The notes: generated by a model from the sequence alone, not told the origin. A DNA stretch of 64,000 nt from an uncultured Actinomycetes bacterium (GCA_963810915.1 CAWEPH010000006.1:939030-1003029), one strand, 5' to 3'; positions 11,047-60,323 are shown, counted from the first letter of the stretch. Translations and numbers: made by a program.

Positions 11047-11251
11047 CGCCGACCTCCGTCCGCGCCGAACCCACGTGTCATCAACGAGGGGAAGCTGCGA
11101 GGGGGAAGCGACGGTCGGTGTTCTGGTGACCGCCGAGGGGAAAGCGAACGATAGCGAGCCCGGCGCGTCGAACCCATCCCCAGCCCGACCGATTCCCGGT
11201 TCTTGTCGGGGGACGATGTCCGAACGTGTCGGGTGAGACGGCCGCGGTTCG

Positions 11252-12910
11252 TTACCGCTCGCCGGGGTCGGTCGGCATGCGTTCGTCCACGATCGCCTGT
11301 GCGCGTTCGCGGCTCTGGGGATGACCGGTGACGGCCTCGAGGAACGGTTCCCGCTCGAGCGCCAGGAGCGTCATCGGCGTCGCAGCCGTGACGGTCGCCG
11401 TTCGCGGCACGTCGCGCAGCAACGCGATCTCACCGATGTGCTCGCCGACGCCGCGGTCGGTCACGTGCGCGCCATCCCGGGTCACCTCGGCCTCGCCCGT
11501 CTCGATGACGTAGAAACGCTCCCCTACCTCCCCCTCGCGGATCAGGACGTCGCCGGCCGCGAGCTCCGTCCGCTTGAGGTTGACGAGGATCCGCTGGATG
11601 GCCGGCGCAGGCAGCGGAGCGAAGATCGGTATGCCGCGTATCAGCTTCAGCATCTCGGCGTCCGGGGCCCTCGCCTCGCGGTCGATCGCTGAGAGCGGGA
11701 CCCAGAGCGCGAGGGCGGAGATCGGAGCTAGCGCACCGACCACGATGAGGGCCGTCCGCACGCCGAACGCCGCCATCAGCGCTGAGGCGCCCAGTGCGCC
11801 GGCCGCCGTCCCCAATGTCCCCAATCCTTCGACGATGCCGAACACGCGCGCCAGGACCTCGTCGGGCGCGATCCGCTGCAGGAGGGTGTTGCCGGCCATC
11901 CACGAGACGCTGCCTCCGGCACCGGCCGCCGCAAAGAGGAGGGGCGCGCTCGCTGCGGACGGAGCCGCGCCGACGACGATGATGGGCGCCCCGAACAGGA
12001 GCGTGCCGCCGGCGAGGGACGGGACCAATCGGCGCCGACCGACCAACGCCACCGTGAGGAGCGCCCCGACCAAGGCACCGACCCCCGCGGCCGAGTTGAG
12101 GAATCCGGCCCACCCCTGACCCTTGTGGAGCAGGTCGATGGCCACGCCGACGTAGATCACGTCGAGGGCTCCCAACAGGAGCATGCTCGCGGCCATCACG
12201 ATCACGAGCAGGCCCGCCCTGCGTTCCTCAGCGAGCACGCGGAAGCCTCCGAACGCCTCGCGTACCACGTCGTGCGCATCCATCGGCTCCTCGGGGCGCA
12301 TCCCGCCGGAGGCCACATCGAGACGCGCGACCAAAAGGGCACCGACGAACACGACCACCGCGAAGAGGGCGAACACCGCGGCCGGTCCGGTCTTCGCGAG
12401 CACCACGCCGGCAACGAACGGTCCGATCACCAGCGAGGCGCTCTCGGCCATGGCCGACACGGAGTTGGCCGCGGTCAGCTCCTTCGGGCTGAGAGCCACG
12501 CTGGGCAGGAGCGCGGACTGGGTGGGTCTCGTGAACGTCATGCTGGCGGCCGCGACGGTCGCGAAGACCAACGTCAGCCCGAACGGCGCGTCCGCGGCCA
12601 GGGCGATCGCGACCACGCCGAGCGCGACCGCCTGCGCGAGGTAGCTCACGAAGAGCACACGGTCGCGCGCGAACCGGTCGCCGGCGAAGGCCCCGAACGG
12701 CGCCACGAGCCCCGCCGGGACCAGCTGGATCGCCGCGGCCAGCCCGGCGGCCGTAGCCCCCCCGCGGTCGTACGCATAGACGAGGATCGCGATCCACGTG
12801 CCGTACTCCGACATGCCGAACCCGAAGAACGCGAGCTCGATCCGTGCCATCCGAGGATCGCGCGCGATGGCGCTCACGGTGCGCACCTGATCCCTCATGC
12901 CGCGCAGCAT
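11252..12910 (-). CDS. MFS transporter fused to a C-terminal cyclic-nucleotide-binding (CAP effector-type) domain
   Basis: About 12 TM helices with an MFS loop motif (GDRFARDRV). The C-terminal ~120 aa carry cNMP-binding motifs (FYVIETGEAEV...GEHIGEIALL...RTATVTAAT). Start may be 12910, 12898 or 12850. Confidence 0.75.
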   Translation of the reverse strand: MLRGMRDQVRTVSAIARDPRMARIELAFFGFGMSEYGTWIAILVYAYDRGGATAAGLAAAIQLVPAGLVAPFGAFAGDRFARDRVLFVSYLAQAVALGVVAIALAADAPFGLTLVFATVAAASMTFTRPTQSALLPSVALSPKELTAANSVSAMAESASLVIGPFVAGVVLAKTGPAAVFALFAVVVFVGALLVARLDVASGGMRPEEPMDAHDVVREAFGGFRVLAEERRAGLLVIVMAASMLLLGALDVIYVGVAIDLLHKGQGWAGFLNSAAGVGALVGALLTVALVGRRRLVPSLAGGTLLFGAPIIVVGAAPSAASAPLLFAAAGAGGSVSWMAGNTLLQRIAPDEVLARVFGIVEGLGTLGTAAGALGASALMAAFGVRTALIVVGALAPISALALWVPLSAIDREARAPDAEMLKLIRGIPIFAPLPAPAIQRILVNLKRTELAAGDVLIREGEVGERFYVIETGEAEVTRDGAHVTDRGVGEHIGEIALLRDVPRTATVTAATPMTLLALEREPFLEAVTGHPQSRERAQAIVDERMPTDPGER

Positions 12911-12959
12911 CGCACCCTCGGGCTCACCCGGTTTGCGGCCCCGAACCCCTGGCCCGAGG

Positions 12960-14342
12960 ATGGGCCCCGTGGAGATCCCGGAGATCCGCTACGCGAAGAC
13001 CCGTGACGGGATCCACATCGCCTATCAGGTGCTCGGCGACGGCCCGGCCGACCTGTTGTTCGTTCCGGGCTTCGCGTCGAACCTGATCTGGAACTGGCAG
13101 CTCCCCTCGTACGCCCACTTCCTGCGGCGACTGGGTTCGTTCTGCCGACTCATCATCGTCGACCGCCGCGGCTGCGGGGTCTCCGACCGGCTCTCACCCG
13201 AGGATCTCCCGTCCCTGGAGGTGATCGCGGACGACCTCGGCGCGGTGCTGGACGCCGTGGCGTCCGAGCGCGCGTCGATGTTCGCGGCGGATGAAGGCGC
13301 GCAGGGCGTGGCGCTCTTCGCAGCGACCCATCCCGAGCGGGTCGAGCGCCTGATCATCTACACGATGGACCCGATGGGCGACTTCCAGCCCTGGGCCGAC
13401 GGCTACAAGTCGCGCGAAGAGCGCGAGGCGTTCCTGGAGGCGTTCATCGTCGAGGTCGTCAAAGGTTGGGGCACGAGGGAGTTCGCGCATTCCGACCCGC
13501 TCGGAGGTCTCGTGATCTGCGGACCTTCCCTAGCCGACGATCCGAACGCGATCGATTGGTACACGGCGTTGTTGCTCCTCTCCACCAGCCCGAGTGGAGC
13601 GGTCGCGTTCCATCGCATGTACTTCGAGACTGACGCCCAGCCGATCCTCGCGTCCATCCGCGTCCCGACGTTGTTGCTCCACCGCGTCGGCGATCTGCTC
13701 GAACCGATCGAAGCGTCGCGCTTCATGGCCGGGCTGATCCCCGGCGCCCGCTTGATCGAACTGGACGGGGACGATCACGTGTGGTTCGCGGGCGACACCG
13801 ACTCCATCGTGGACCCGATCCAGGAGTTCATGACGGGTGCCCGGCCGGCGCACGACCTCGACCGCGTCCTGGCGACCGTGCTGTTCACCGACATCGTCGG
13901 CTCGACCGAGATGGCGGCCAGGCTGGGCGACACGGCATGGAAGGAACTGCTCGCCACGCATGACGAGTGGGCAAAGACGGAGATCGCAAGACATCGAGGG
14001 AACTACGTCCACACGACGGGCGATGGTCTGCTCGCGACCTTCGACGGACCGGCACGAGCGGTGCGATGCGCACAGGCGATCGGTGAGGCGGTTCGGTCGC
14101 TCGGGATCGAGCTCCGGTCGGGTTGCCATACGGGTGAGATCGAGCTCACCGCTGATGACGTGCAGGGTCTCGCCGTGCACATCGGCGCCCGAGTGGCCGC
14201 TGCCGCCGGGCCGGCCCAAGTTCTCGTCTCCTCCACGGTGAAGGATCTCGTGGCCGGATCCGGTCTCAGCTTCGAGGATGCCGGCGTGCACGAGCTGAAG
14301 GGCGTGCCCGACACCTGGCATCTCTATCGGGTTGTCGGCTGA
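12960..14342 (+). CDS. Paralog 1: alpha/beta-hydrolase-fold domain fused to class III nucleotidyl cyclase domain (LipJ/Rv1900c-like)
   Basis: N-domain has hydrolase-fold motifs (FVPGF...IIVDRRGCGVSD...). The cyclase homology domain has [44 protein letters not shown]. The stop overlaps the next start (TGATG). Confidence 0.8.
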   Translation: MGPVEIPEIRYAKTRDGIHIAYQVLGDGPADLLFVPGFASNLIWNWQLPSYAHFLRRLGSFCRLIIVDRRGCGVSDRLSPEDLPSLEVIADDLGAVLDAVASERASMFAADEGAQGVALFAATHPERVERLIIYTMDPMGDFQPWADGYKSREEREAFLEAFIVEVVKGWGTREFAHSDPLGGLVICGPSLADDPNAIDWYTALLLLSTSPSGAVAFHRMYFETDAQPILASIRVPTLLLHRVGDLLEPIEASRFMAGLIPGARLIELDGDDHVWFAGDTDSIVDPIQEFMTGARPAHDLDRVLATVLFTDIVGSTEMAARLGDTAWKELLATHDEWAKTEIARHRGNYVHTTGDGLLATFDGPARAVRCAQAIGEAVRSLGIELRSGCHTGEIELTADDVQGLAVHIGARVAAAAGPAQVLVSSTVKDLVAGSGLSFEDAGVHELKGVPDTWHLYRVVG

Positions 14343-15700
14343 TGGAGACCCCTCGCACGCGGTACGCGAAGACCGTCGACGGGGTCAGCATCGCCTATCA
14401 GGTGCGGGGTGACGGGCCCGTCGATCTCATCTACGCGAGGGGGTGGACCCAGAACCTCGAGATCGAGCTCGAGGGACCGCGGAGCGGCGCCTGGTTCAGT
14501 GGGCTCGCCTCCATCTCGCGTTTGATCCTCTTCGACAAGCGAGGGACGGGCCTCTCGGACCGCACCGCGACGCCCGACCTCGAGATACGCGCCGACGACC
14601 TGCGAGCGGTGCTCGACGCCGCCGGCTCGGACCGCGCTGTCGTGATGGGCGACGCCGACGGTGGCGCCCTCGCGGTGTTCTTCGCGGCGACCCACCCGGA
14701 GCGCGTGCAGGCCCTGATCCTCAATGGGGCGTACGCGCGCGCCGCATGGGCCCCCGACTACCCGATCGGGCAGAAGGAGGACGACTTCCTGGCAGACCGA
14801 GAAGACACGGCCAGACGATGGGGCACGATCGAGTTCGCGCAGGAATGGGTCGATCGACAGGCGCCCTCGCTCTCGAACGACACCGAATACGTCGAATGGT
14901 TCGCGAAGACCTTGCGGCACGGGGCCTCTCCCGCGGCCGAGCTCGAGTTCGAAGACATGTGGCGCGAGATCGACGTCCGCTCCGTGCTCGGAAGCGTGCA
15001 GGCGCCAACGCTCGTGGTCGCCACGCCGGGTGCGGGCGATCTGGTCAAGGGGACGGGGGACGTGGCCCGCGAGCGTTACCTCGTCGAGCGGATCCCCGGC
15101 GCGAAGTACGTGGAGCTCCCTGGCCGCGACCTCATCATCGAGCACACGAACCCAACCCTGCTCCTGGATGAGATCGAACGGTTCATCCGATCGGTGAGCG
15201 CGGAGGAGCGCGAGATCGATCGGGTCCTGGCGACCGTCATGTTCACCGACATCGTGGGCTCGACCGAACGAGCGTCCACGTTGGGCGACGCAGCATGGAG
15301 AGATCTGCTGGAGCGCCACCATCGAACGGTGCGAGCGATGATCGGCCGCTATCGGGGACAGGAGATCAACACGGCGGGCGACGGGTTCCTGGCCACGTTC
15401 GACGGCCCCGCTCGAGGGGTGAGATGCGCGCAAGCGATCGCCGAAGCGGTACATCCCCTTGGCCTCGAGGTCCGAGCCGGCCTGCACACGGGCGAGATCG
15501 ACGTCACCGGCGACGATGTTCAGGGTATCGCCGTGCATATCGGTGCCCGTGTCGGGGCCCTGGCGGGTCCGTCCGAGGTCTTGGTCTCGCAGACGGTCAA
15601 GGACCTCGTCGCCGGGAGCGGGCTCACGTTTGAGGAGGCCGGCGAGCACGAGCTCAAGGGCGTCCCTGACCGCTGGCACCTCTACCGGGTGGTGAGCTGA
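14342..15700 (+). CDS. Paralog 2: hydrolase-fold + class III cyclase fusion
   Basis: 452 aa, intact. METPRTRYAKTVDG...FTDIVGSTERA...[26 protein letters not shown]...RAGLHTGEI...[10 protein letters not shown]. Confidence 0.85.
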   Translation: METPRTRYAKTVDGVSIAYQVRGDGPVDLIYARGWTQNLEIELEGPRSGAWFSGLASISRLILFDKRGTGLSDRTATPDLEIRADDLRAVLDAAGSDRAVVMGDADGGALAVFFAATHPERVQALILNGAYARAAWAPDYPIGQKEDDFLADREDTARRWGTIEFAQEWVDRQAPSLSNDTEYVEWFAKTLRHGASPAAELEFEDMWREIDVRSVLGSVQAPTLVVATPGAGDLVKGTGDVARERYLVERIPGAKYVELPGRDLIIEHTNPTLLLDEIERFIRSVSAEEREIDRVLATVMFTDIVGSTERASTLGDAAWRDLLERHHRTVRAMIGRYRGQEINTAGDGFLATFDGPARGVRCAQAIAEAVHPLGLEVRAGLHTGEIDVTGDDVQGIAVHIGARVGALAGPSEVLVSQTVKDLVAGSGLTFEEAGEHELKGVPDRWHLYRVVS

Positions 15701-15701
15701 C

Positions 15702-17060
15702 TTGGAGACCTACCGGACGCGGTACGCGATGACCGTCGACGGGGTGAACATCGCCTACCAGGTACGAGGGAACGGACCGGTCGATCTCCTCTGGGTCGGG
15801 GGGTTCACCGCGAACCTCGAGGTTGAATACGACGGCCCAAGGAACAACGCCTCCTTCTACGCGGAGCTCGCCGCGTTCACCCGGCTGATCTTGTTCGACA
15901 AGCGCGGGACCGGGTTGTCGGATCGCACGCAGACCCCCGACCTCGAGAAGCGTGTCGACGATATGCGGGCGGTGTTGGACGCGGTCGGCTCCGAGCGAGC
16001 GGTGGTGCTTGGCGCCGCGGACGGCGCGGCCCTGGCGGCGTTCTTCGCGGCGACACATCCCGAACGGGTTCAGGCGCTGATCCTCAAGTCTCCCAGCGCG
16101 CGCACCGCATGGGCCCCCGACTACCCGCAGGGGATGAAGGAGGAGGACTACCTGGCGGAACGGGAGGATATGGCGCGACGATGGGGCTCGATCGAGCTGG
16201 CGCAGGAATGGGTGTCACGTGAGGCCCCCTCGCTCGCGCACGACACCGAATACGTCGAGTGGTTCGCGAAGTCGATGCGACATGGTGCATCCCCGGGGTC
16301 CGCCGTCGCGTTCGAGGACGTTTACTACGCGATCGACGTGCGGTCGATCCTCGGGAGCGTCCAGGCGCCCACCCTCGTGCTCGCCATCCCAGGAGCGGAC
16401 GAGCAGTTCGAGACCGTAGGCGCTGGACAGGACCGAGACCTCGCCGATGGGATCCCCGGCGCGAAGTACGTCGAGTTGTTTGGGCGAGATCTCGTCATCA
16501 TCGCCACGAACCCGCGAGTGCTTCTCGACGAGATCCACGGATTCATCAACTCGGTGAGCGCCGAGGAGGCCGAGTTCGATCGCGTACTCGCGACCGTGCT
16601 CTTCACCGACATCGTCGGCTCGACCGAGCGCGCGTCGGCGTTGGGAGACGGGGCGTGGAAGGACCTACTCCGACGCCACCACGAGGTGGTTCGCGCCATG
16701 ATCGGCCGTTACCGCGGCAAGGAGATCGGCACGGCGGGCGATGGGTTCCTCGCGACCTTCGACGGCCCCGCTCGAGGCGTGCGCTGCGCGCAGGCGATCG
16801 CCGAGGCCGTGCAACCCCTAGGTCTGGAGATCCGAGCCGGCCTGCACACCGGCGAGATCGAGGTGACGGGCGACGATGTCCAGGGCATCGCCGTCCACAC
16901 GGGCGCCCGCGTCGGTGCCCTCGCGGGACCGTCCGAAATCCTGGTCTCCCAAACCGTCAAGGATCTCGTGGCCGGATCGGGTCTCGCCTTCGAGGACGCC
17001 GGCGAGCACGAGCTGAAGGGCGTGCCCGACCGCTGGCGCCTCTATCGGGTGGTGGGCTGA
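15702..17060 (+). CDS. Paralog 3: hydrolase-fold + class III cyclase fusion
   Basis: 452 aa, intact, TTG start 1 nt after the previous stop. More than 70% identical to paralogs 2 and 4 by eye. Confidence 0.85.
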   Translation: METYRTRYAMTVDGVNIAYQVRGNGPVDLLWVGGFTANLEVEYDGPRNNASFYAELAAFTRLILFDKRGTGLSDRTQTPDLEKRVDDMRAVLDAVGSERAVVLGAADGAALAAFFAATHPERVQALILKSPSARTAWAPDYPQGMKEEDYLAEREDMARRWGSIELAQEWVSREAPSLAHDTEYVEWFAKSMRHGASPGSAVAFEDVYYAIDVRSILGSVQAPTLVLAIPGADEQFETVGAGQDRDLADGIPGAKYVELFGRDLVIIATNPRVLLDEIHGFINSVSAEEAEFDRVLATVLFTDIVGSTERASALGDGAWKDLLRRHHEVVRAMIGRYRGKEIGTAGDGFLATFDGPARGVRCAQAIAEAVQPLGLEIRAGLHTGEIEVTGDDVQGIAVHTGARVGALAGPSEILVSQTVKDLVAGSGLAFEDAGEHELKGVPDRWRLYRVVG

Positions 17061-17061
17061 G

Positions 17062-18405
17062 GTGGACATCCCTCGCACCCGGTATGCGAAGACCGTCGAC
17101 GGGGTCCACATCGCGTATCAGGTACGGGGTGACGGGCCTGTCGATCTCATCTACGCGATGGGATACACGGCGAACTTCGAGGTGGAGCTCGAAGGACCTC
17201 GGAGCGGCATGTACTTCGATGGGCTTGCCTCGCTCGCCCGACTGATCCTGTTCGACAAGCGTGGGACCGGGTTGTCGGACCGAACCCAGACACCCGACCT
17301 CGAGATGCGCGCGGACGACCTGCGAGCGGTGCTGGACGCGGTCGGATCCGAACGAGCAGTGGTGCTCGGTGCTGCCGACGCCGGCGCCCTGGCGGCCTTC
17401 TTCGCGGCCGCCCATCCGGAGCGGGTGCGGGCCCTGATCCTCAACGGGGCCTACGCGCGGAAGGCGTGGGCTCCCGACTACCCGAACGGGCAGACGGAGG
17501 AGGACTACCGCGAAGGTCGAGAAGACATGGCACGACGCTGGGGGACGATGGAGCTGGCACAGGACTGGGTCGATGCCGAGGCGCCGTCGCTCTCGCACGA
17601 CGCGGAGTACCTGGAATGGTTCACCAAGACCATGCGCTACGGCGCTTCCCCTGCGGCCGCCGTCGAGTTCGAGGACGCGATCTACGCCATCGATGTACGG
17701 GCGATCCTCGGGACGGTGCAGGCGCCGACCCTCGTGCTGGCGCAGCCCGGTTCTCTGGACACCGCCGGCGGGCGCGAACGCGATCTTGCAGACCGGATCC
17801 CCGGCGCGAAGTACGTCGAGCTTCCGGGGCGGGACTTCATCATGGAGCACACCAACCCCGCCCCCCTGCTGGATGCGATCGGAGGGTTCATCCGATCGGT
17901 GAGTGCTGAGGAGCGCGAGATCGACCGGGTCCTGGCGACCGTCCTGTTCACCGACATCGTGGGTTCGACGGAGCGGGCGGCCCAACTCGGGGATGGAGCG
18001 TGGAGGGCCTTGCTGGAGCGGCACCACGAGGTGGTGCGGGCGATGATCGGGCGGTACCGGGGCACCGAGGTCAGCACGGCGGGCGACGGGTTCCTCGCGA
18101 CGTTCGACGGACCCGCCCGAGGGGTTCGCTGCGCGCAGGCGATCGCTGAAGCGGTGCAGCCGTTGGGGCTCGAGATCCGAGCCGGTTTGCACACGGGTGA
18201 GGTGGAGACGATCGACGGCTCGGTAGGCGGCATCGCCGTCCACACCGGCGCGCGCGTGGGTGCCCTCGCAGCACCGTCCGAGGTCCTCGTCTCGCAGACC
18301 GTCAAGGATCCGGTGGCCGGCTCCGGCCTCTCGTTCGAGGATGCCGGTGAGCACGAGCTGAAGGGTGTCCCCGACCGGTGGCGCCTGTACCGGGTGGTGA
18401 GCTGA
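17062..18405 (+). CDS. Paralog 4: hydrolase-fold + class III cyclase fusion
   Basis: 447 aa, intact, GTG start. Same motif set. The stop overlaps the next ATG (TGATG). Confidence 0.85.
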   Translation: MDIPRTRYAKTVDGVHIAYQVRGDGPVDLIYAMGYTANFEVELEGPRSGMYFDGLASLARLILFDKRGTGLSDRTQTPDLEMRADDLRAVLDAVGSERAVVLGAADAGALAAFFAAAHPERVRALILNGAYARKAWAPDYPNGQTEEDYREGREDMARRWGTMELAQDWVDAEAPSLSHDAEYLEWFTKTMRYGASPAAAVEFEDAIYAIDVRAILGTVQAPTLVLAQPGSLDTAGGRERDLADRIPGAKYVELPGRDFIMEHTNPAPLLDAIGGFIRSVSAEEREIDRVLATVLFTDIVGSTERAAQLGDGAWRALLERHHEVVRAMIGRYRGTEVSTAGDGFLATFDGPARGVRCAQAIAEAVQPLGLEIRAGLHTGEVETIDGSVGGIAVHTGARVGALAAPSEVLVSQTVKDPVAGSGLSFEDAGEHELKGVPDRWRLYRVVS

Positions 18406-19760
18406 TGGAGTCCCCTGAGACCAGGTACGCCCTGACCTCGGACGGCGTCTACGTCGCGTACCAGATGCTCGGCGAGGGCCCCATCGACCTAGTGTTCGCC
18501 TTCGGCTGGCTCAACAACGTCGATTCCGTCTGGTCGATCCCGGAGATCGCATCGTTCTATCGACGCCTGGCCGCCTTCTCTCGCTTGATCATCTTCGACC
18601 GGCGCGGCACGGGGTTGTCGGACCGCATCACCGAGGGTGAGGCTGCAACCTTCGAAGCCGGCATGGACGACATCCGAGCAGTGATGGATGCGGCAGGATC
18701 CGAACGGGCCCTGCAGGTCGGGTTCCAAGACGGCGGGATGCTCTGCGCGCTGTTCGCGGCATCCTTCCCGGAGCGAGCCACCGGCCTCGTGATCATCGGG
18801 AGCTCGCCGGTAACCATCTGGGCACCGGACGCTCCCTGGGGATGGACGGAACAGGAGTATCAGCCATACCTCGATGCCTTGGTGCAAGGCTGGGGCACAC
18901 CCGGATGGACCGCGCGGCACATGGAATCGATGGCACCTTCGTTCCGAAGCAGCGACCGGGCGGCCGTGGAGCGCTTCGCCAAGCATTTCCGCGCGTGTGC
19001 GAGTCCGGGTACGGCGCTGGCGATCGAACGGATGCTCATGCACAGCGACGTGCGAGGCGTGCTCCCGACGATCCAGGTGCCGACGCTCGTGATCCACAAC
19101 GTCGATGATGCGGTCGAAGAGGTCAGAGCAGCGCGCTACACGGCTGAAGAGATCCCCGGGGCCAAGCTCGTCGAGCTGCCGTTCACGGAGCATGCGCCCT
19201 TCTACGAGAGCGCGAACCCGACCCTTGAAGCTGTGGAGACGTTCGCCTCGCAGGTTCGAGCGGAGCAGGCCGAGTTCGACCGCGTGCTCGCCACCGTGCT
19301 GTTCACCGACATCGTGGACTCCACCGCCCAAAGCGCGGCCATGGGCGACCACCTGTGGCGGGACGTGCAGCAACGACACGACCGCATCGTGCGGGCGAAC
19401 CTCGCACGCTACCGAGGGAGAGAGATCAAGACGATGGGCGACGGATTCCTCGCCACGTTCGACGGACCCGCACGCGGCGTGCGGTGCGCCGAGTCGATAG
19501 CGGCGGCGATACTGCCGCTCGGGATCGAGATCCGCGCCGGGCTGCATACGGGCGAGGTGGCGTTCGAAGGCGACGATGTCAACGGCCTGGGGGTGGCGAT
19601 CGGGGCGCGCGTCGGAGCCCTCGCTAGAGCGTCCGAGGTGCTGGTCTCCCAAACCGTCAAGGACCTCGTGGCCGGCTCCGGACTCACGTTCGAGGACGCC
19701 GGTGAGCACGAGCTGAAGGGCGTGCCCGACCGCTGGCGCCTCTACCGGGTGGTGGGCTGA
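18405..19760 (+). CDS. Paralog 5: hydrolase-fold + class III cyclase fusion (more divergent; Lys retained in KTMGDGF)
   Basis: MESPETRYALTSDG...FTDIVDSTA...[29 protein letters not shown]...RAGLHTGEV...GLGVAIGARV. Confidence 0.8.
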   Translation: MESPETRYALTSDGVYVAYQMLGEGPIDLVFAFGWLNNVDSVWSIPEIASFYRRLAAFSRLIIFDRRGTGLSDRITEGEAATFEAGMDDIRAVMDAAGSERALQVGFQDGGMLCALFAASFPERATGLVIIGSSPVTIWAPDAPWGWTEQEYQPYLDALVQGWGTPGWTARHMESMAPSFRSSDRAAVERFAKHFRACASPGTALAIERMLMHSDVRGVLPTIQVPTLVIHNVDDAVEEVRAARYTAEEIPGAKLVELPFTEHAPFYESANPTLEAVETFASQVRAEQAEFDRVLATVLFTDIVDSTAQSAAMGDHLWRDVQQRHDRIVRANLARYRGREIKTMGDGFLATFDGPARGVRCAESIAAAILPLGIEIRAGLHTGEVAFEGDDVNGLGVAIGARVGALARASEVLVSQTVKDLVAGSGLTFEDAGEHELKGVPDRWRLYRVVG

Positions 19761-19761
19761 G

Positions 19762-36303: not shown

Positions 36304-36435
36304 GATGCCCGAACCTCCCTCGACGGATCGCCCGATGCGCACACTAGGAACGGGGAGGGTGCCGAACATCGTCGTGTGGGATGAATCCCGTCGTCCCCGG
36401 AGACGACAGGCGCTCGCCTCGCGGAGGTGGTCGAC

Positions 36436-37098
36436 CTAGCGCCGGGTGGGCTTGACCAGACCGGTGCTGTAGGCGAGCACGACCGCCTGCACGCGGTCAC
36501 GGAGTTCGAGTTTCTCGAAGATGTGCCGAACGTGGGTGCGCACGGTGGTGTCCGCGATGAAGAGCTCAGCGGCGATCTCGCCGTTCGAACGCCCCTGTCC
36601 GACCAACGTGAGGACCGTGCGTTCGGTCGGCGTGAGCGTGTCGAGCTCGTGCGCCTGTTCCGGACCCGGCACGCGCGGCTCGATGAACGTTTCAACGAGA
36701 CGCCGGGTCACCGAGGGCGCGAGGAGCGTGTCGCCGTCGGCCACGACCCTGATGGCGTGCACCAACTCATCCGCGCGGACATCCTTCAGTAAGAAGCCGC
36801 TCGCACCCGCCCTGAGCGCTTCGAGCACGTACTCGTCGATGTCGAAGGTCGTGAGGATCAGGATCTTGATGGCGCCGCCCTCGGCCGCCAGGATCCTCGT
36901 CGCCTCCACGCCATCGATCCCGGGCATCCGGATGTCCATCAGGACGACGTCGGGTTGTAAGAGGTGAGCCTGTTCGATCGCTTCACTTCCGTCGGCGGCC
37001 TCGCCGACGAGCTCGATGTCGTCTTCAGACCGCAGTGTCATCTCGAAGGCGGCGCGCATCAGTGGTTGATCGTCGGCAACCAGAACGCGGATGGTCAC
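36436..37098 (-). CDS. NarL/LuxR-family response regulator
   Basis: Receiver domain (VADDQ, DVVLMDIRMPGIDG, K in ILILTTFD) plus LuxR HTH. Overlaps the upstream kinase gene by 4 nt. Confidence 0.85.
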   Translation of the reverse strand: MTIRVLVADDQPLMRAAFEMTLRSEDDIELVGEAADGSEAIEQAHLLQPDVVLMDIRMPGIDGVEATRILAAEGGAIKILILTTFDIDEYVLEALRAGASGFLLKDVRADELVHAIRVVADGDTLLAPSVTRRLVETFIEPRVPGPEQAHELDTLTPTERTVLTLVGQGRSNGEIAAELFIADTTVRTHVRHIFEKLELRDRVQAVVLAYSTGLVKPTRR

Positions 37099-38405
37099 GC
37101 CGGGTCCGCATCCAGCGGCAACGACGCCGCGACCTCGTACCCCCCGCTGAACCTCGCTCCTACCCGGAGTTGACCCCCGAAGAGCCCGACACGCTCTCGC
37201 ATGCCGAGATGTCCGTACCGCGACCGTTGCGGATCCGCATCGTCGAGAGAGAACCCTCCCCCGTTGTCCGTGATCACGAGATCCAGCGTCGAGGTCCCGT
37301 AGCGGATCAAGACCGACGCGCTCGCGGGCCCTGCGTGCTTCAGGACGTTGGTGAGGCCCTCCTGAACGATGCGGAACGCCGAGAGATCGAGTCCCGCGGG
37401 CAGGGTCCTCGGGGTGCCCTCCACCGTGAGCTCCACGGGAAGCCCAGCCTCTCGCACTTGCGAGAGCAGCGTCTCGATATCGCCCAGCCCTTGTTGTGGG
37501 TCGCGGACGTCGGGTCGATCGTCGTCGGTCCTCAGCAGTCCCAACATCCGCCGCATCTCCACCAGCGCCTCTCGACCCGAGTCCTCGATCGAGCGCAACG
37601 CTGAGCGCCCCTCCTCGGGATCGCCGTCGAACACGCGCTGCGCGGCGGCCGATTGAGCCACGATGACGCTCACGTTGTGCGCCACCATGTCGTGAAGCTC
37701 ACGCGCGATCACTCGGCGCTCTTCGGCCACCGCCTGCTGCGCCGCCAATTCGCGTTCCCGCTCGAGGCGCGTCGCCCGATCCTCAAGATCACTCACCTGA
37801 GTCCGCTTGCTCCGCAGACCGTCACCGATGAACCAGACGGCGCCCACCACGAGGCCCTCGGCGAAGATCGTGTCGAACTCGATGGGTTCTCTCGACAGGA
37901 TGAGGAGCAGCAGCACGACGCCGCCACTCGCGACGGCGGCCGGGATCGAGACCCGACGATCGGTGTGTGCGGCCACCGAGTAGAGCGCGAGGAGGAATCC
38001 GAAGGAGGCGAACGACGGAAGGTAGCCGAACGAGAAGAACAGGAACATCGCGGAGCTGCACACCGCGAGGACGGCAACCGGTGCCGCCCGCCTCCAGACG
38101 AGAGGCACGGTCTGCATCAGCGCAAGCACGAGGCCGAGCGTGTCGAGACTGCGATCCCTTGGCGTACCGCCCTCGGGGAGATCGACGTGGAAGTGCGCCA
38201 AGAGACCGACCAACGACGCTGCCGTCAGCAGCGCCGCGACGATGGTGTCTTGGACGAGCGGATCGGCGAGCGCGTGCCGGAGTGCTCGGCTCGCCGATCC
38301 GGGGTGCTCGCGCACACGGAGGGCGACGGCGGGTGAGCCCGTAGGTTCCGGGCTCGGATGTGAACGGGAGAGCCTCAGGAGACCGCGATCCCCACCGTTC
38401 ATGTC
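37095..38405 (-). CDS. Sensor histidine kinase (multi-TM intramembrane-sensing N-domain, HisKA_3, HATPase_c)
   Basis: H-box ELHDMVAHNVSVI, N-box LTNVLKHA, G-boxes DNGGGF / GHLGMRERVGLFGG. 4-6 TM helices with no large extracytoplasmic loop. Start uncertain (38405-38495). Confidence 0.8.
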   Translation of the reverse strand, partial: DMNGGDRGLLRLSRSHPSPEPTGSPAVALRVREHPGSASRALRHALADPLVQDTIVAALLTAASLVGLLAHFHVDLPEGGTPRDRSLDTLGLVLALMQTVPLVWRRAAPVAVLAVCSSAMFLFFSFGYLPSFASFGFLLALYSVAAHTDRRVSIPAAVASGGVVLLLLILSREPIEFDTIFAEGLVVGAVWFIGDGLRSKRTQVSDLEDRATRLERERELAAQQAVAEERRVIARELHDMVAHNVSVIVAQSAAAQRVFDGDPEEGRSALRSIEDSGREALVEMRRMLGLLRTDDDRPDVRDPQQGLGDIETLLSQVREAGLPVELTVEGTPRTLPAGLDLSAFRIVQEGLTNVLKHAGPASASVLIRYGTSTLDLVITDNGGGFSLDDADPQRSRYGHLGMRERVGLFGGQLRVGARFSGGYEVAASLPLDADPA

Positions 38406-38571
38406 GACACCGGCTCTCAGGGAGTGACCGCGAGGGGCCGGATCACTCATGCCATGCGGACGTTTGCCGGAACATAAACCCTGAGGGCGGCTCAACTCAA
38501 TAGTCTGTATGGGCAGGAGATCCCGCAGGCCGCGGAGGGTGATGATGCACGCAGCTCACGCCAACGGCTCC

Positions 38572-39888
38572 TCACGCGGGGGGATCCGCGGCAGGGGCAA
38601 CCGCCGGTTCTCGTCGTGGGACGGATCCGCCCCCAGGTGGGGGACGCGGCCGCTCGAACCGCCCGAAGATCGCGATCAGGCCGAGCAGGATGACGCCGGG
38701 CACGACGATCCAGACCGGCCGCTCCAGCCACCATCGCAGGGTGCTGTCGGTCTCCTGCCCGAACCCGAGCGGCCAGAGCAGCAAGATCGCGAGCAGGTAG
38801 GCGGTCATGTGCCAGAGGAAGAGGGTCATGATCACGCCGTTCATCGCCACCGTGAACGTCCAGGGCCGCCGATACTGGAGCCACCGGTTCGCTCGATCGC
38901 GCAGCAGCATCGCCGCACCGATCGACCACACGCCGCCCAACAGGAAGCAGAGGGTTGGCGGGTACGCGTTGGAGACCGCCTCCACGTCGGTCCCGAGAAG
39001 GCTCTTGGGGTACGCGCCGATGCCCGGGAACCACGTGTGGCGCGCGTCGCCGAAGAGCTGCCAGAAGGGCGGGTTGGTCAGGACCACGAGACCGCCCAGC
39101 CCCGCGGCCACCATCGCCCAGAATACCGGGCGCGGCCACCGCAGCATGCTGCCGTCCCCGTAGGCATGACCGAGCTGGTGCGGGAACAACAGCACGAACG
39201 CCACGTTGCCCCAGCGTGCGATGGGATGGCCGCCCATGAACCCGATCGCGTCGCAGAGCACCGCGCCGAGCACCATCGCGGCCGGCACCCACAGGCCGAA
39301 GCGTCGGTGCAGCCAGATCGTGCCCGGCGCGACGGCCACGACGACGAGGTACACGGCGAGGAACCACAGGGGCCCGAACGGGATGGTGGCGCCCGGAGGC
39401 AGGACGCCGCGGAGCAGGCGCGTGTCGCCCCACAACGGCGGGCCGGCCGGGGCGCCGATGTCCGCCACGTGCAGCACGACGAGCACCACCGCCCACACGC
39501 CGAGGAAGACGAGCGACGGACGGAGCAGGCGCGCGGCCCGGCTCCGCACGAACGCACCCGCGGTCCGGCCGCGCGCCCGGTACGCGTCGTACGTGCGCAG
39601 GTTCGCGAAGCCGCCCACGAAGAAGAAGATGGGCATCACCTGCAGCAGCCAGGTGGCGAGCCAGAGGTACGGCGTCAGGCCGATCGCGCTCGTGTCCCTG
39701 ATCACCCCGTGGTCCCACACGATCACGCCGATCATCCAGTGCCCGCACACCACGGCGAGGATGCTGACGGCGCGCAGGAAGTCGACGTAGCGGTCCCGCG
39801 TCGACGGCGTCTGCGCGACGAGCTCACTCACGTTGCCGCCCACGGCACCTCCCATCCCCGGTGTAGCCGCCGAATCGGTCCCGGTCAA
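38572..39888 (-). CDS. Acyltransferase family 3 (OafA/OpgC-like) integral membrane acyltransferase
   Basis: About 10 TM helices. N-terminal RYVDFLRAVSILAVVCGHW motif characteristic of Acyltransferase_3. Confidence 0.7.
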   Translation of the reverse strand: MTGTDSAATPGMGGAVGGNVSELVAQTPSTRDRYVDFLRAVSILAVVCGHWMIGVIVWDHGVIRDTSAIGLTPYLWLATWLLQVMPIFFFVGGFANLRTYDAYRARGRTAGAFVRSRAARLLRPSLVFLGVWAVVLVVLHVADIGAPAGPPLWGDTRLLRGVLPPGATIPFGPLWFLAVYLVVVAVAPGTIWLHRRFGLWVPAAMVLGAVLCDAIGFMGGHPIARWGNVAFVLLFPHQLGHAYGDGSMLRWPRPVFWAMVAAGLGGLVVLTNPPFWQLFGDARHTWFPGIGAYPKSLLGTDVEAVSNAYPPTLCFLLGGVWSIGAAMLLRDRANRWLQYRRPWTFTVAMNGVIMTLFLWHMTAYLLAILLLWPLGFGQETDSTLRWWLERPVWIVVPGVILLGLIAIFGRFERPRPPPGGGSVPRREPAVAPAADPPA

Positions 39889-39909: not shown

Positions 39910-41541
39910 TCAGGCGCGGTAGACGACGTCGCCGCCAACGATCGTGTGGGTGACGCGCACGTCGAGGATCCGGCGCGGCTCGGCCTCGAGCGCGAACAGA
40001 TCCTCGGATAGCACGACGAGATCCGCGTACTTGCCCACGGTCACCGAACCGCGGTTCGACTCGGCGAAGCACGCTCCGGCGCCCCCCATCGTGTAGGCGC
40101 GCAGCGTGCTGGCGAGGTCGAGGGTCTCCTCCGGGATCCAGGCATCGGAGCCATCGAGGTTCGCGCGCGTGAGCGCCGTGTAGATGCCCACCATCGGATC
40201 CATCTCCGCCACGTTCCAGTCGCTCGAGAACGTGAGCCTGGCGCCCGCGTCCCGGAGGCTCCGGAACGCCCACGCGTAGCGCCAACGCTCTGGGCCGACG
40301 TTCGCGCGCCAATCCGCCACGATCTCGGGTGCGCAGTGCCGCGGCTGCATGCACGGCATCACGCCGAGCGCGCCGAACCGCGGCACCTCGGCGGCGTCCA
40401 AGCATTCGGTGTGCACCATGAGGTGGCGGCGATCGCCCGGGCCGTTGGCTGCGCGCGCGGCCTCGATGCCGTCGAGCGCGGTGCGGAGCCCACGGTCGCC
40501 GGTCCCGTGGATGTGGCACTGGAACCCGCGGCCCTCGAGATCGGTGATCAGCTCGGCGAACTCCCGCGGCTGCCAGAAGAGCTCGCCGCGCTCGCCGGGA
40601 CGGTTCGCGTACGGCTCGAGCATGGCGGCGGTCCACGGCTCGATCACGTCGTCGATGTAGAGCTTGATGGGCCCCACTCGCAGCCGGTCGTCGTCCAGAC
40701 GCGCGCGCGCGGCCTCGAACTCGCGCACCTCGGCCTCGGAGGTCCCCACCGGGTGGAACATCGCCGCGACGAGACGCGAGCGCAGCCGTCCTTCCTCGCG
40801 GGCACGCTCGAAGATCCACAGGTCGTCGGGCGAGTTCTGCGGCTCCACGACCGTGGTGATGCCGAAGGCAGTGGCCATGTCGAGGCTCTCGATCGTGCGC
40901 TCGTACTGGAGCGCCCGCTCGTACCCGGGGAGGACGCCCTCCAGCGCCGCCTGTCCGGTGCGCGAGATGCCCATCACGGCGAACCCCGTCACGAACCCGG
41001 TCGGCTCCCCCGTCGCGTCCAGCTGCACGTGACCGAACGGCACCGTCGTCGCGTCGCGCGTGATCCCGAACGCCCGCATCGCCTCGCGGTTCATCCAGAC
41101 GTTGTGCGCGTCGTAGCTGAACAGGAACGCCGGCCGGCCACCCGTGAGGCCGTCGAGGTCCTCCCAGGTGGGAAGGCGTCCGCCGGGCATGGCGCCGTAG
41201 TTCCAGCCCACGCCCTCGATCCAGGTGAGCTCCGGATGGGCGTCGGCGTGGGCGCGCACCCGGGCGCGGAGCTCGTCGAGGCTAAGGGCGCCCGCGAGGT
41301 CGACCTCCGCCGGGTTCGACCCCAGCCGCACGTGGTTGTGCGAGTCGATGAACCCGGGCAGCACCGTCGCGCCGCGCGCATCGAGCACGTCGGTGTTGGG
41401 TCCGGCGAGGACTCGCGCCTCCTCGTCCGCTCCCACCCAGGCGACGCGCTCCCCCTCGATGGCGACGGCGCTCGCCTCGGGCATGGCGTCATCCATCGTG
41501 TGGACGCGCGCGTTCACGATCAGGAGATCGGGTTCCAAGCA
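39910..41541 (-). CDS. Amidohydrolase-family (Amidohydro_3-like) metal-dependent hydrolase
   Basis: LIVNARVHTMDD...GFIDSHNHV (HxH metal site) ...HIHGTGD... with a C-terminal DxH-type motif. TTG start at 41541 with GGAGGA 5 nt upstream. The long 5' ORF extension was rejected. Confidence 0.7.
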   Translation of the reverse strand, partial: CLEPDLLIVNARVHTMDDAMPEASAVAIEGERVAWVGADEEARVLAGPNTDVLDARGATVLPGFIDSHNHVRLGSNPAEVDLAGALSLDELRARVRAHADAHPELTWIEGVGWNYGAMPGGRLPTWEDLDGLTGGRPAFLFSYDAHNVWMNREAMRAFGITRDATTVPFGHVQLDATGEPTGFVTGFAVMGISRTGQAALEGVLPGYERALQYERTIESLDMATAFGITTVVEPQNSPDDLWIFERAREEGRLRSRLVAAMFHPVGTSEAEVREFEAARARLDDDRLRVGPIKLYIDDVIEPWTAAMLEPYANRPGERGELFWQPREFAELITDLEGRGFQCHIHGTGDRGLRTALDGIEAARAANGPGDRRHLMVHTECLDAAEVPRFGALGVMPCMQPRHCAPEIVADWRANVGPERWRYAWAFRSLRDAGARLTFSSDWNVAEMDPMVGIYTALTRANLDGSDAWIPEETLDLASTLRAYTMGGAGACFAESNRGSVTVGKYADLVVLSEDLFALEAEPRRILDVRVTHTIVGGDVVYRA

Positions 41542-41613: not shown

Positions 41614-42516
41614 GTGGCCAAACGCAAGAAGCAGATCGAGCGGATCAAGCGGTTCACCGTCCCGCTGCGGGTCGAGCCGGGGAGCGCCGTGCGGCTCCCG
41701 AAGGGCTTCAACCCGCGCTTCAAGGCGGGGCTCCGCAAGAAGGACGCCAAGGACCTGCTGAGCCGCGGCGTGGAGATGCTCGCGGACTACCAGACGCGGC
41801 TCGCGGCCCAGGACACCTGGGCGGTCCTGGTGGTGCTGCAGGCGATCGACGCCGCCGGCAAGGACGGGACGATCAAGCACGTGATGAGCGGCGTGAACCC
41901 GCAGGGTGTGTCGGTGCGCTCGTTCAAGGTGCCCTCGACGGAAGAGCTCTCCCACGACTACCTGTGGCGCTATCAGAAAGCGCTCCCCGAGCGCGGGCAG
42001 ATCGGCATCTTCAACCGCTCGCACTACGAGGAGACGCTCGTCGTCCGCGTGCATCCGGAGCTCCTCGAGCGTCAGCTCCTGCCCACGGACCCCAAACCCA
42101 ACCAGGTCTGGAAGCGCCGGTACCGGGAGATCAACGAATGGGAGCACTACCTCGTGGAGAACGGCGTGAAGGTCGTGAAGCTCTTCCTGAACCTGTCCAA
42201 GGAGGAGCAGCGCGAGCGGTTCCTGGCGCGCATCGACGAGCCGGAGAAGAACTGGAAGTTCTCGGCCGCGGACGTGCGGGAGCGGGTCTTCTGGGAGGAC
42301 TACCAGGCGGCGTTCTCCGACATGCTCACGCACACGAGCACGCCGTGGGCGCCCTGGCACGTGATCCCGGCGGACCGCAAGTGGTTCGCGCGGGTCGCCG
42401 CCGCGGGCGTGATCATCGAGGCGCTGGCCGACATCGATCCCCGGTTCCCCGAGGTGAGCGAGGAGGACCGGGCAGCGCTGCTGGAGGAGCGCGCGATGCT
42501 GGTGGCCGAGCGCTGA
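41614..42516 (+). CDS. Polyphosphate kinase 2 (PPK2) family polyphosphate:nucleotide phosphotransferase
   Basis: Walker A-like (VLQAIDAAGKDGTIKHV) and PPK2 lid motifs (FNRSHYEETLVVRVH, WKRRYREINEWE). Confidence 0.75.
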   Translation: MAKRKKQIERIKRFTVPLRVEPGSAVRLPKGFNPRFKAGLRKKDAKDLLSRGVEMLADYQTRLAAQDTWAVLVVLQAIDAAGKDGTIKHVMSGVNPQGVSVRSFKVPSTEELSHDYLWRYQKALPERGQIGIFNRSHYEETLVVRVHPELLERQLLPTDPKPNQVWKRRYREINEWEHYLVENGVKVVKLFLNLSKEEQRERFLARIDEPEKNWKFSAADVRERVFWEDYQAAFSDMLTHTSTPWAPWHVIPADRKWFARVAAAGVIIEALADIDPRFPEVSEEDRAALLEERAMLVAER

Positions 42517-42561
42517 GGCTCCCTGTCCGGCCCGACCGCCGGTTGCGGTAGGGTCCGCCGC

Positions 42562-44577
42562 GTGAGCGAGGGAGCGGGATCGAGCCCGTCGCGCGTGGCG
42601 TTGGCGTGGCTGCTCGTCGCGGCGGCGGTCGCGGTGGCGGCGTGGGCGGTCGCCCTGGGACTTCGCGACGGCGGGACGACCCAGGACACCTGGCTGTTCG
42701 TCGTGGCGGCCGGCTCCGTCACGACGGCCGCCGTCGGTGCTCTGATCGGGGGGAAGACCGGGAACGCGACGGGCTGGCTCCTCGCGGTCGGCGGCGTTGG
42801 GCTCGGGGTAGGGGTCCTGCTGGGCCAGGCGGCGTCCGGGTGCGGCGAGCCGGCCGCGCTGACCGCCATCCCGGCAACGTTCTCCGCCACGCCCGGCTGG
42901 CAGGTCGCCGGCTCCGTCGCCGGGGTCGCCGTCTGGGGCGCGTGCCTGGTCACCGCCGTGACCTTCTATCCGTTCGGCCCGTCGAGGATGCGGGACGGGT
43001 GGGCTGCAGAACGCCAATCGCTCGTGGCACCGGCATTGGCGTGGACGGGCGCCGTCGTGGCGACCGTTGCCGCCTCGGCTGCCGATGGGCGCGTCGCACC
43101 CTTCGGGGCCACCTCCGACCGGCTATGCGGGACGCCCTTCCCCGGGACGACGCGCCCCCCCGCACTCACCGCCGGCGTGGTCCTCCTGGCCCTCGGCGCG
43201 GCCGCGGCGCTGGCGATCGCCTGGCGGCGGGAACGCGCGGTGTCCGGGTCGGATCGGGCGCAACTGCTCCCCGTGGTGGCGACCGCGACCGTCGCCGCGC
43301 TCGCGCTCGCCGCCACGCTCCTGATCACCGAGCCGGGACCCCTGTGGGGAGACTCGTGGCCGTTCGTGGTGGCTTGGGCGCTCGCGGCCGTCGCCCTCCC
43401 GCTGGCGGTCGCCGTCACGATCGTCCGCTCGCACGCGTTCGGCATCTACCGGTTCGTGGGATTCATGGCGGACTACCGGATCTGGACGGCCGCCCTCGGG
43501 GTGGGCGCGATCGCGGCCGTGCTGGGGCTCACCTGGCTCATCGCCTGGATCCTCGGTGTCGATGATCTTCCCGTCGCCGTCGCGGCCGTGGCGCTCGCGA
43601 TGGGCGCGGCGGTGTATCCGTCCTGGCGGGGATGGCAGGCCCGGGTGGACGCGCGTTACGGCCAGCACCAGGAGGACCCCGCGGAGACCCTCGAGCGCCT
43701 CACGGCCGAGGTCGACGATCCCGCCCAGGTCCGAGGACCGGTCTTCGATCTCCTGGCCCGGGTGGCGCCGATGGTGGTGGTCCAGGGAGAGGCGGGGATG
43801 CGATTCCTCGTGTCCACCGACGATCGCGAGGTGGGCCGCCACACCTTCGTGCACGGGGGCTACGACCTCGGCACGATGCGCTGCGCGATGGACCTCCTCG
43901 CAGCGTCGCGGGGGGTCGTGCCGGGGATCGTGCTCGCAGGCGGCGCGGTCCTCGACATCGGAGCGAACATCGGAACCTCCGTGGTGCCGTTGCTCCGACT
44001 CTTCGGTGCGGACCGAGGGATCGCGGTCGAGCCCGCGCCCGGCAACGTGGAGCTCCTCCTGCTCAACATCGAACTGAACGATCTCGCCGGTCGCGTCGAC
44101 GTGATCCCGGTGGGAGCTTCGGACCGCGACGGGTTCCTCGAGCTCGCGCTCTCGGCCGAGAACTCGGGCGACCACCGGATGCGGGTCGGGACCGATGACG
44201 TGTTCGAACGCTCCAGCGTGACGGTACAGGTCCATCGCGTGGACACGTTGGTGGAGACGGGCGCGCTCGACCCGTCCGATCTCACGCTCGTCTGGTTGGA
44301 CGTGCAGGGCCACGAGGGGCACGTGCTGAGCGGCGCCACGTCGATCCTTCGCGGATCCGTCCCCCTGGTGAGCGAGTTCTGGCCCTCGGAGATGCGCCGC
44401 ACCGGCGGACTCCTCGCGTTCACGGACGCGGTCTCGGAGCACTTCGGACGCATGATCGATCTGCGCCGCACCCAGGACGAAGGGGCGACGGTGGACGCGC
44501 CGGCCTCGGAGATCGCGACGTGGACCCAGCGGTACGAAGACGAGGGCGCGTTCACGGACCTCCTGCTCCTCCCGTAG
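42562..44577 (+). CDS. Polytopic membrane domain (~370 aa, at least 8 TM) fused to C-terminal FkbM-family methyltransferase domain
   Basis: The C-terminal ~250 aa carry the FkbM motif LDIGANIGTSVVPLLRLFG...IAVEPAPGNVELLLLNIELN. Confidence 0.65.
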   Translation: MSEGAGSSPSRVALAWLLVAAAVAVAAWAVALGLRDGGTTQDTWLFVVAAGSVTTAAVGALIGGKTGNATGWLLAVGGVGLGVGVLLGQAASGCGEPAALTAIPATFSATPGWQVAGSVAGVAVWGACLVTAVTFYPFGPSRMRDGWAAERQSLVAPALAWTGAVVATVAASAADGRVAPFGATSDRLCGTPFPGTTRPPALTAGVVLLALGAAAALAIAWRRERAVSGSDRAQLLPVVATATVAALALAATLLITEPGPLWGDSWPFVVAWALAAVALPLAVAVTIVRSHAFGIYRFVGFMADYRIWTAALGVGAIAAVLGLTWLIAWILGVDDLPVAVAAVALAMGAAVYPSWRGWQARVDARYGQHQEDPAETLERLTAEVDDPAQVRGPVFDLLARVAPMVVVQGEAGMRFLVSTDDREVGRHTFVHGGYDLGTMRCAMDLLAASRGVVPGIVLAGGAVLDIGANIGTSVVPLLRLFGADRGIAVEPAPGNVELLLLNIELNDLAGRVDVIPVGASDRDGFLELALSAENSGDHRMRVGTDDVFERSSVTVQVHRVDTLVETGALDPSDLTLVWLDVQGHEGHVLSGATSILRGSVPLVSEFWPSEMRRTGGLLAFTDAVSEHFGRMIDLRRTQDEGATVDAPASEIATWTQRYEDEGAFTDLLLLP

Positions 44578-60322: not shown

Positions 60323-60323
60323 C

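Follow-up and report, generated by a model that had tools for sequence, protein, structure and literature searches.

In a stretch of 64,000 nucleotides from an uncultured Actinomycetes bacterium (GCA_963810915.1, CAWEPH010000006.1:939030-1003029; hereafter the window), ssd, the gene of a TadZ/CpaE-like ATPase (44552-45688, minus strand), and the tadA-tadB-tadC-flp-tadE-tadF operon of a Tad/Flp pilus locus (11046 down to 7103, minus strand) are 33,505 bp apart. Our main finding is that the block lying between them is very probably a lineage-specific plasticity zone, built up by repeated independent gains at the ssd-tadA junction of the actinobacterial Tad/Flp locus. The gains were probably brought about by recombination, a site-specific mobile element being unlikely, and much of the block looks old and apparently vertically inherited, with a turnover that continues. 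A preliminary description of the window had both sets of coordinates right and proposed island-like accretion within a conserved locus; the comparison of 80 related loci and the existence of an empty site bear out the accretion, but the layering of the block speaks against a single insertion.

The window contains about 69% G+C, and its genes were called from third-position GC content, then checked with Pfam, NCBIfam and homologues. Relatives were retrieved with the ssd protein from a collection of species-representative genomes, giving 80 loci, of which the best match is 90% identical; all window proteins were searched against these loci, each taken with its 10-kb flanks. All 80 loci belong to metagenome-assembled genomes (MAGs) of uncultured soil Actinomycetes/Actinomycetota, and the source of the window is not a Mycobacterium. 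Conspecific contigs, 98.2 to 99.7% identical to the window at the nucleotide level (99.4 to 99.7% over 23.9-58 kb), include a 485-kb contig (ERZ25039602 contig_12166), L081, and three contigs from a second sample (L082, L085 and L087). The nearest relatives from other species are L001 and L084, at about 90% amino acid identity.

The state of the ssd-tadA junction varies widely among the relatives. The two genes abut in about 45 of the 80 loci; a non-coding spacer of 0.2 to 0.7 kb parts them in 6, an insert of 1 to 9.2 kb in 21, and in 8 loci tadA is more than 10 kb from ssd, outside the fetched flank. At all seven of the abutting junctions that were read, the stop codon of ssd either overlaps the start codon of tadA or lies directly against it (GTGA, ATGA or TGATG) and the ribosome-binding site (RBS) lies inside the end of ssd, which indicates that ssd and tadA are translationally coupled. 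Neighbor joining trees of ssd and of TadA, which are single-gene trees without support values, are broadly congruent: abutting loci occupy the base of each, and no fewer than five clades with inserts alternate with abutting clades; given this congruence, we rejected tree incongruence as a trace of the split arrangement spreading by recombination. One relative (L063) provides an empty site, where both flanks of the window are collinear (g45..g41-ssd-tadA..g6-g5-g4-g3) and no insert is present. In Mycobacterium tuberculosis, tadZ/Rv3660c and tadA/Rv3659c bear consecutive locus numbers within a seven-gene cluster (PMC9531140), in agreement with the adjacency quoted in the preliminary description. 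The coupled junctions, the basal position of the abutting clades, the empty site and the M. tuberculosis order together lead us to conclude that ssd-tadA adjacency is ancestral and that the junction was opened repeatedly.

The opposite polarity, in which separation would be ancestral in the lineage and adjacency would have been restored secondarily by deletion, is improbable. It draws on the fact that the sub-clade of the window is separated throughout (L001, L003, L013, L017, L026, L084 and the conspecific contigs) and that composition is uniform; these are two findings that the preliminary description had itself named as signs of an ancestral state, and they hold for the nearest relatives. 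Yet the roughly 45 loci with adjacent genes are basal in both trees and interleaved with opened clades, an actinobacterium as distant as M. tuberculosis has consecutive locus numbers (PMC9531140), and it is unlikely that many separate deletions would each have remade a four-nucleotide stop/start overlap.

What fills the opened junction differs from clade to clade: giant DUF11 proteins, an OmpR two-component system with a Germane/Gmad2 lipoprotein, a GDSL lipase, a dienelactone hydrolase, a GT4 glycosyltransferase with a glycogen-debranching-like enzyme, peptide ABC importers, or single cyclase genes. The locus has in this respect the property of a hotspot, namely one interval between conserved syntenic genes that holds unlike cargo in each genome.

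Opening of the junction goes together with the position of a conserved putative Tad promoter/leader, which in the window occupies 11047-11251 on the minus strand and consists of a AATCGGTCGGGCTGGGGAT box, a TATCGT -10-like hexamer at 11148-11153, a C-rich 5' leader (TTCCCCCTCGC, CTTCCCCTCG) and a GGAGG RBS before the tadA GTG. Across the loci, its layout is an AATCGGnCGG-nnn-TGGGGAT box, followed about 22 nt on by a TAnnGT hexamer, a C-rich leader of 110 to 130 nt and a GGAGG RBS; within the leader, a second TTCCCC motif accompanies a near-invariant CTCTCCCTC. The 9-mer CTCTCCCTC is almost leader-specific, as 44 of its 68 occurrences in the 1.3 Mb of loci fall inside these leaders. The element precedes tadA in the window and in 29 of 29 spacer- or insert-bearing loci; it precedes ssd in nearly all abutting loci, and the copies from the two positions align as a single family. 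One clade (L006/L065/L079/L007/L009) has it at both positions, as expected of a duplication intermediate, and in the remaining opened clades ssd retains just a leader of reduced length, in which the -10 hexamer is similar; the hexamer upstream of ssd in the window reads TACGGT. The position of the element, before ssd or before tadA, hence tracks the intact or split state of the locus. From sequence similarity we infer a duplication that placed the promoter/leader before tadA; had DNA simply been inserted between the two reading frames, as first proposed, the element would be left unexplained.

This promoter/leader is a conserved, undescribed element. A structured RNA was rejected as its basis: an alignment of 53 sequences gave no RNAalifold consensus, folding energies were no better than those of shuffled sequences, and no Rfam family matched the leader. 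The element may be conserved for its DNA or its primary sequence, and the near-invariant CUCUCCCUC in the C-rich leader could pair with the RBS. Scans of the tadA-proximal junction for sigma-70 promoters and terminators returned nothing.

The block itself contains the genes that the preliminary description had listed, as Pfam matches attest: a cyclase array, an MFS transporter gene with a cyclic-nucleotide-binding (cNMP-binding) domain, an ABC importer, an RND pair with its two-component system, and acyltransferase, amidohydrolase, PPK2 and FkbM genes. Error-prone data of the MAG type, in which comparison with a conspecific contig reveals 14 single-base insertions, might raise the suspicion that ssd and tadA were set apart by faulty metagenome assembly or binning, that is, in a chimeric contig. 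This is hardly credible. An independent 485-kb conspecific contig (contig_12166) spans both ends with an identical gene order, ssd and tadA being 36.5 kb apart on it, which shows that the arrangement is no assembly chimera; the order recurs in the second-sample contigs (L082, L085, L087), in L001, which is another species, and in L084, a contig built from short reads.

Parts of the block are shared to different phylogenetic depths. The deepest layer lies on the ssd side: an amidohydrolase gene is found beside ssd in L017, L019 and L024, together with the acyltransferase gene in L017, and FkbM is found beside ssd in L003, L013 and L026 (also in L001), accompanied by PPK2 in L003 and L026. L001 and the window have ssd-FkbM-PPK2-amidohydrolase-acyltransferase in common, as well as the lactonase/ABC genes, at about 90% nucleotide identity, and L084 shares the tadA-proximal end in the order cyclase-MFS-(extra kinase gene)-tadA. 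The RND/two-component cassette is distributed differently. L001 is without 28531-38631, a clean 10.1-kb indel, and has a 1.15-kb RCC1-like gene instead; in the L003 genome the six-gene cassette lies 2 Mb from ssd. The cassette also turns up whole at chromosomal sites unrelated to this locus in L088 (4333-14067) and in L089 (4297-23156), where it forms a head-to-tail tandem pair, with no mobility gene adjoining it at either the L088 or the L089 site. The conspecific contigs have kept the RCC1-like gene (1.13 kb), carry fewer cyclase units and possess an FtsX block, in an interval of 36.5 kb. A second property of a hotspot is accordingly observed, that is, turnover among close relatives and conspecific strains, which affects the RND cassette, the extra gene of L084, the cyclases, the FtsX block and the RCC1-like gene; the conspecific contigs further differ in small indels.

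Two explanations for the scattered cassette were tried and rejected. Recent horizontal transfer was suggested by the first RND protein, which is 94% identical to its L003 counterpart, but nucleotide identity is just 83%, compared with 70 to 78% in the flanks, which points to a strongly conserved protein rather than to a recent transfer. Recombination between FkbM paralogues was likewise discarded, as L088 has beside its cassette an FkbM-like gene that bears no relation to the FkbM of the window.

The present arrangement started from ssd and tadA translationally coupled behind a single promoter/leader upstream of ssd. A promoter/leader of its own would free tadA-tadF from read-through out of ssd, and the interval from the ssd stop codon to the tadA promoter could then tolerate added DNA. 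The oldest gain is probably that of amidohydrolase/acyltransferase and FkbM/PPK2 on the ssd side; a second, before the split from the relatives at about 90% identity, probably brought the ABC/lactonase genes and, on the tadA side, the cyclase and cNMP-MFS genes; a third and later one is the RND/two-component cassette, found at other chromosomal sites in relatives. A fourth set of changes, which is ongoing among conspecific strains, comprises cyclase copy number, a 1.1-kb deletion and the FtsX block. DNA was probably gained by homologous exchange, with the conserved flanks as anchors, and by illegitimate recombination, while unequal crossing-over acted within the cyclase array.

Alternatively, the block might be one classical mobile island (an integrative and conjugative element, a prophage remnant or an integrative element) that was inserted once and later lost its mobility genes. 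Its large size and the accessory type of its genes would suit such an origin, the RND cassette acts as a movable unit, and the tadA gene of one relative (L010) holds an element with a large serine recombinase, so that mobile elements do target the locus. Every feature of a mobile genomic island that was looked for is nevertheless absent from the block. Pfam scans of the open reading frames (ORFs) called in the block found no integrase, recombinase or transposase domain, three ORFs being without a family match, and a scan of the two junctions for terminal or att-like repeats returned only the internal cyclase repeats and inverted matches at chance level, as the preliminary description had reported for integrases, transposases and flanking direct repeats. 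No tRNA gene lies at the block borders, the only one in the window being that of tRNA-Sec (60233-60325), 15.7 kb outside the block. Composition cannot be told apart from that of the flanks: block GC is 68.4% versus 70.0%, tetranucleotide profiles of block and flanks correlate at 0.987, and correlations for sub-blocks (0.963 to 0.986) overlap the range of flank segments. A foreign origin as judged from GC and tetranucleotide composition was therefore rejected for want of a signal. Uniform composition, and the separation shared by the nearest relatives, make the block old and native-looking rather than a recent foreign island. With its parts differing in phylogenetic depth, and with inserts in relatives that range from 0.2 to more than 10 kb and carry unrelated cargo, a single mobile island is very improbable.

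Several points weigh against a plasticity zone fed by recombination. The mechanism is deduced from missing signs of mobile elements, no breakpoint signatures having been seen; the three ORFs outside known families (26970-27587, 28498-29451 and 32679-33110) may hide a mobility function; and the serine recombinase element in L010 indicates that site-specific elements do reach the neighbourhood. Both the count of separate openings and the succession of gains are approximate, being derived from the trees described above, and the leader-duplication step is drawn from the resemblance between its copies. Finally, cyclase genes recur beside tadA in three other clades, upstream of it and divergent (L021, L023, L034), which could reflect functional selection rather than neutral accretion.

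This last observation leads to another explanation, compatible with accretion, in which the cargo is not neutral: a cyclic AMP (cAMP) module, made up of the eight LipJ-like cyclases and the cNMP-binding MFS protein, would have been recruited beside tadA because Tad expression is under cAMP-CRP control, forming a functional supra-locus for signalling and pilus. A CRP-like palindrome of the GTGA-N6-TCAC type, GTGACGCAGGTCAC, lies at 45762-45775 (plus strand), 74 nt upstream of the ssd start. Such palindromes precede ssd in 18 of 77 loci, compared with about 1 expected by chance, and are confined to the clade of the window and one other. In addition to the divergent cyclase genes directly upstream of tadA in the three clades just named, an MFS-cNMP gene and a LipJ-like cyclase gene are near each other at an unrelated locus of the L003 genome. 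On the other hand, the cargo of the relatives is mostly unconnected with cAMP, the tadA leader itself is without a CRP-like site, and the palindrome might bind another regulator; LipJ-like cyclases are moreover common paralogues in these genomes, and their adjacency to tadA could plausibly be fortuitous. From the sequence features at hand, cAMP control of the Tad locus is conceivable, and recruitment of a cAMP module is in our view unlikely. Somewhat more doubtful is a regulatory split in which the Tad leader (GGGGAT box, TAnnGT -10 and CUCUCCCUC) would have been duplicated before tadA while, in the clade of the window, ssd kept the CRP-type operator, with cyclases and the cNMP-gated transporter recruited into a cAMP-controlled Tad switch. 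If this were true, leader duplication would have uncoupled the pilus assembly genes from ssd.

The genes that flank the block represent a divergent form of the actinobacterial Tad/Flp locus, of which Rv3660c-Rv3654c is the type. The ssd gene is intact and encodes a ParA-MinD ATPase of the ssd/tadZ/cpaE type, with a Pfam CbiA/ParA match and MinD/ParA proteins as relatives in the Protein Data Bank (PDB); its best NCBIfam match is TIGR03815, 'septum site-determining protein Ssd' (E=1.1e-27), at 97 bits, short of the 154 bits set as curated cut-off. The convergent genes ssd and FkbM overlap at their 3' ends by 26 bp (44552-44577), with an identical overlap in the conspecific gene calls. On the minus strand, tadA, encoding the secretion ATPase, covers 9758-11046 and starts with a GTG at 11046, matching the conspecific gene call. 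It is followed by the two T2SSF genes tadB (8935-9758) and tadC (8101-8923), by flp (7875-8081), an intact pilin gene 100% identical to its conspecific counterpart, on which DUF4244 (PF14029) was detected, by the minor pilin gene tadE (7490-7885), intact, with a Pfam TadE match of E=7.8e-14 and a product 100% identical to the conspecific protein, and by tadF (7103-7472), encoding a TadE-like minor pilin of the Rv3654c family. The conspecific gene calls (two T2SSF genes, DUF4244, TadE and PF13400) are all collinear with 7103-9758 of the window. The TadB-TadC-Flp-TadE-Rv3654c-family order of an actinobacterial Tad/Flp locus is present in the window; immediate contiguity of ssd/tadZ with tadA is absent from it, as it is from contig_12166. 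The gene adjoining the Tad operon at 3345-5570 encodes a PBP1A-family protein, not a helicase.

Four of the Tad reading frames are not intact in this assembly. Compared with the conspecific contig, the window has 14 single-base insertions and hardly any deletions. Nine lie in the Tad operon: two in tadA (9937 and 10378), two in tadB (9275 and 9283), four in tadC (8200, 8258, 8580 and 8630) and one in tadF (7332); the other five affect the PBP1A-family gene (3147, 3283, 3335, 3528 and 3890), and the next 6 kb (11.2-17.1 kb) have none. As a consequence, tadA is spread over three reading frames, Pfam T2SSE matching only at profile positions 4-161, that is, up to the Walker A motif and the frameshift, and tadF is split over two frames, as detected by tblastn. 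All four Tad ORFs are intact in L081. The conspecific TadA protein is an intact 429 amino acids and reaches 332.6 bits with TIGR03819, under the cut-off of 373; conspecific TadF reaches 56.3 bits with TIGR03816, over the cut-off of 50.95. The insertions are mostly not in homopolymers. Other assemblies of the same species carry frameshifts of their own at different positions, which makes assembly errors the probable origin of the 14 insertions in the PBP1A gene and in tadA, tadB, tadC and tadF, rather than real decay.

Three related loci have an interrupted or rearranged tadA. The element in L010 (11226-15992) is about 4.5 kb long, sits at about codon 96 and encodes a large serine recombinase (Resolvase, Recombinase and Zn ribbon domains) and a nuclease-like protein with a NERD domain. 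In L023 (16496-16768), a tadA fragment ends at the same codon as the L010 break and is followed by a cyclase gene. The conspecific contig L082 has 1.5 kb of extra DNA (10479-11973) inside tadA, at window position 10104/10105; an insertion sequence was rejected here, as the extra DNA holds a fragment resembling a cyclase 5' end, which is more in line with a rearrangement or a misassembly.

Reading the block from its tadA side, the first gene (11252-12910, minus strand) encodes an MFS transporter fused to a C-terminal cNMP-binding domain (Pfam MFS_1 and cNMP_binding), a gene that adjoins the tadA side also in L084. It is followed by eight tandem units, each a LipJ-like fusion of an alpha/beta-hydrolase and a class III cyclase (12969-23854, plus strand), defined by Pfam matches and by repeats with a period of about 1350 bp; the best PDB match of the cyclase domain is M. 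tuberculosis LipJ (1YBT, E=1.7e-54). Units 6 (19762-21211) and 7 (21211-22549) are degenerate, with multiple frameshifts. Copy number varies among conspecific assemblies, 17351-20102 of the window being missing in L081, and unit 6 contains a 122-bp tandem duplication (19981-20102 / 20103-20224) at an apparent unequal-crossover joint.

The three genes or gene groups that come next are common to the window and L001. The first is an ABC importer without its ATPase (23898-27028, minus strand; Pfam BPD_transp_1 and SBP_bac_8), composed of permease 2 (23898 to about 24695), permease 1 (24755-25663) and a solute-binding protein (25697-27028), for which an exact-match look-up gave nothing. The others, on the plus strand, are a lipoprotein-like ORF without a family match (26970-27587) and an SMP-30/gluconolactonase-like (SGL) gene (27562-28464). 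At 28451-28530 (plus strand), an 80-bp remnant corresponds to the 3' end of the RCC1-repeat-like gene that is complete (1.13 to 1.15 kb) in L001 and the conspecific contigs. Identity to the conspecific contig L085 is just 91% over 27580-28443 and 99.4% over the next 11 kb, and this jump beside the RCC1 remnant suggests a recombination breakpoint.

Beyond the remnant lies the RND/two-component cassette, a self-contained set of six genes recognized with Pfam (28531-38571, minus strand) and missing from the closest species. It encodes a secreted protein without a family match (28498-29451), an RND pump (29504-32656), a lipoprotein of 143 amino acids, also without a family match (32679-33110), a second RND pump (33124-36369), a LuxR response regulator (36436-37098) and a HisKA_3 kinase (37095-38495). 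The ssd-proximal part of the block consists of genes with Pfam matches to Acyltransferase_3 (38572-39888, minus strand), Amidohydro_3 (39910-41541, minus strand) and PPK2 (41650-42516, plus strand; E=1.1e-65), and of the FkbM-family methyltransferase gene (42562-44577, plus strand; Methyltransf_21 and TIGR01444).

Outside the block, a second variable region of 7.2 kb (53027-60192) is missing in L001 and present in the conspecific contigs. It contains genes for a Ser/Thr kinase, an 82-amino-acid ORF, an AAA_16-TPR-LuxR regulator and a 489-amino-acid ORF, stops 40 bp before the tRNA-Sec gene and has a short CGGACC-like repeat at either end.

The block is real, yet it is not a mobile element, and the locus is not of the Mycobacterium type with a foreign island recently added. 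What it offers is a well-resolved hotspot that was opened several times independently inside an operon, at a translationally coupled pair. The related loci form a natural series for operon breakage and re-promotion, from 0 bp through spacers of 0.2 kb and inserts of 1 to 9 kb to 33 to 36 kb. Specialists of genome plasticity will find nothing surprising here; most worth following up are the Tad leader and the CRP-like site, which are testable handles on Tad pilus regulation in uncultured soil Actinomycetota.

Among known systems, the Flp/Tad cluster Rv3660c-Rv3654c of M. tuberculosis resembles the window in its seven gene types, their order and their orientation (seven-gene cluster, PMC9531140), and in the NCBIfam models that match best (TIGR03815, TIGR03819, NF041390 for the Rv3655c TadE, and TIGR03816). 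The differences are that ssd and tadA are contiguous there and 33.5 kb apart here, that ssd (97 of 154 bits) and TadA (333 of 373) of the window are under the equivalog cut-offs, and that the window comes from an uncultured soil lineage, with four ORFs frameshifted in its assembly. The TIGRFAM 'helicase/secretion neighbourhood' has a DEAH helicase where the window has a PBP1A-family protein as downstream neighbour. M. tuberculosis LipJ (Rv1900c) shares with the cyclases the two-domain architecture of an alpha/beta-hydrolase and a class III adenylyl cyclase, whereas in the window eight paralogues stand in tandem, of which two are degenerate, and copy number varies at the strain level. Gene-interrupting elements with large serine recombinases are represented by L010, where tadA itself is broken rather than the ssd-tadA junction; the window has none.

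Hotspots of gene gain on chromosomes, also called plasticity zones, in which conserved core genes bound the variable interval, are a known category. The block resembles them in the varied accessory genes that occupy one syntenic interval, in the turnover between conspecific strains and in having no mobility genes of its own. It differs in lying inside an operon, at a translationally coupled pair, and not between operons, and its opening is associated with an operon promoter/leader placed before the downstream gene. The block can be classed as one more instance of an established type of genome feature; its sole unusual aspect is the location of the hotspot inside an operon.

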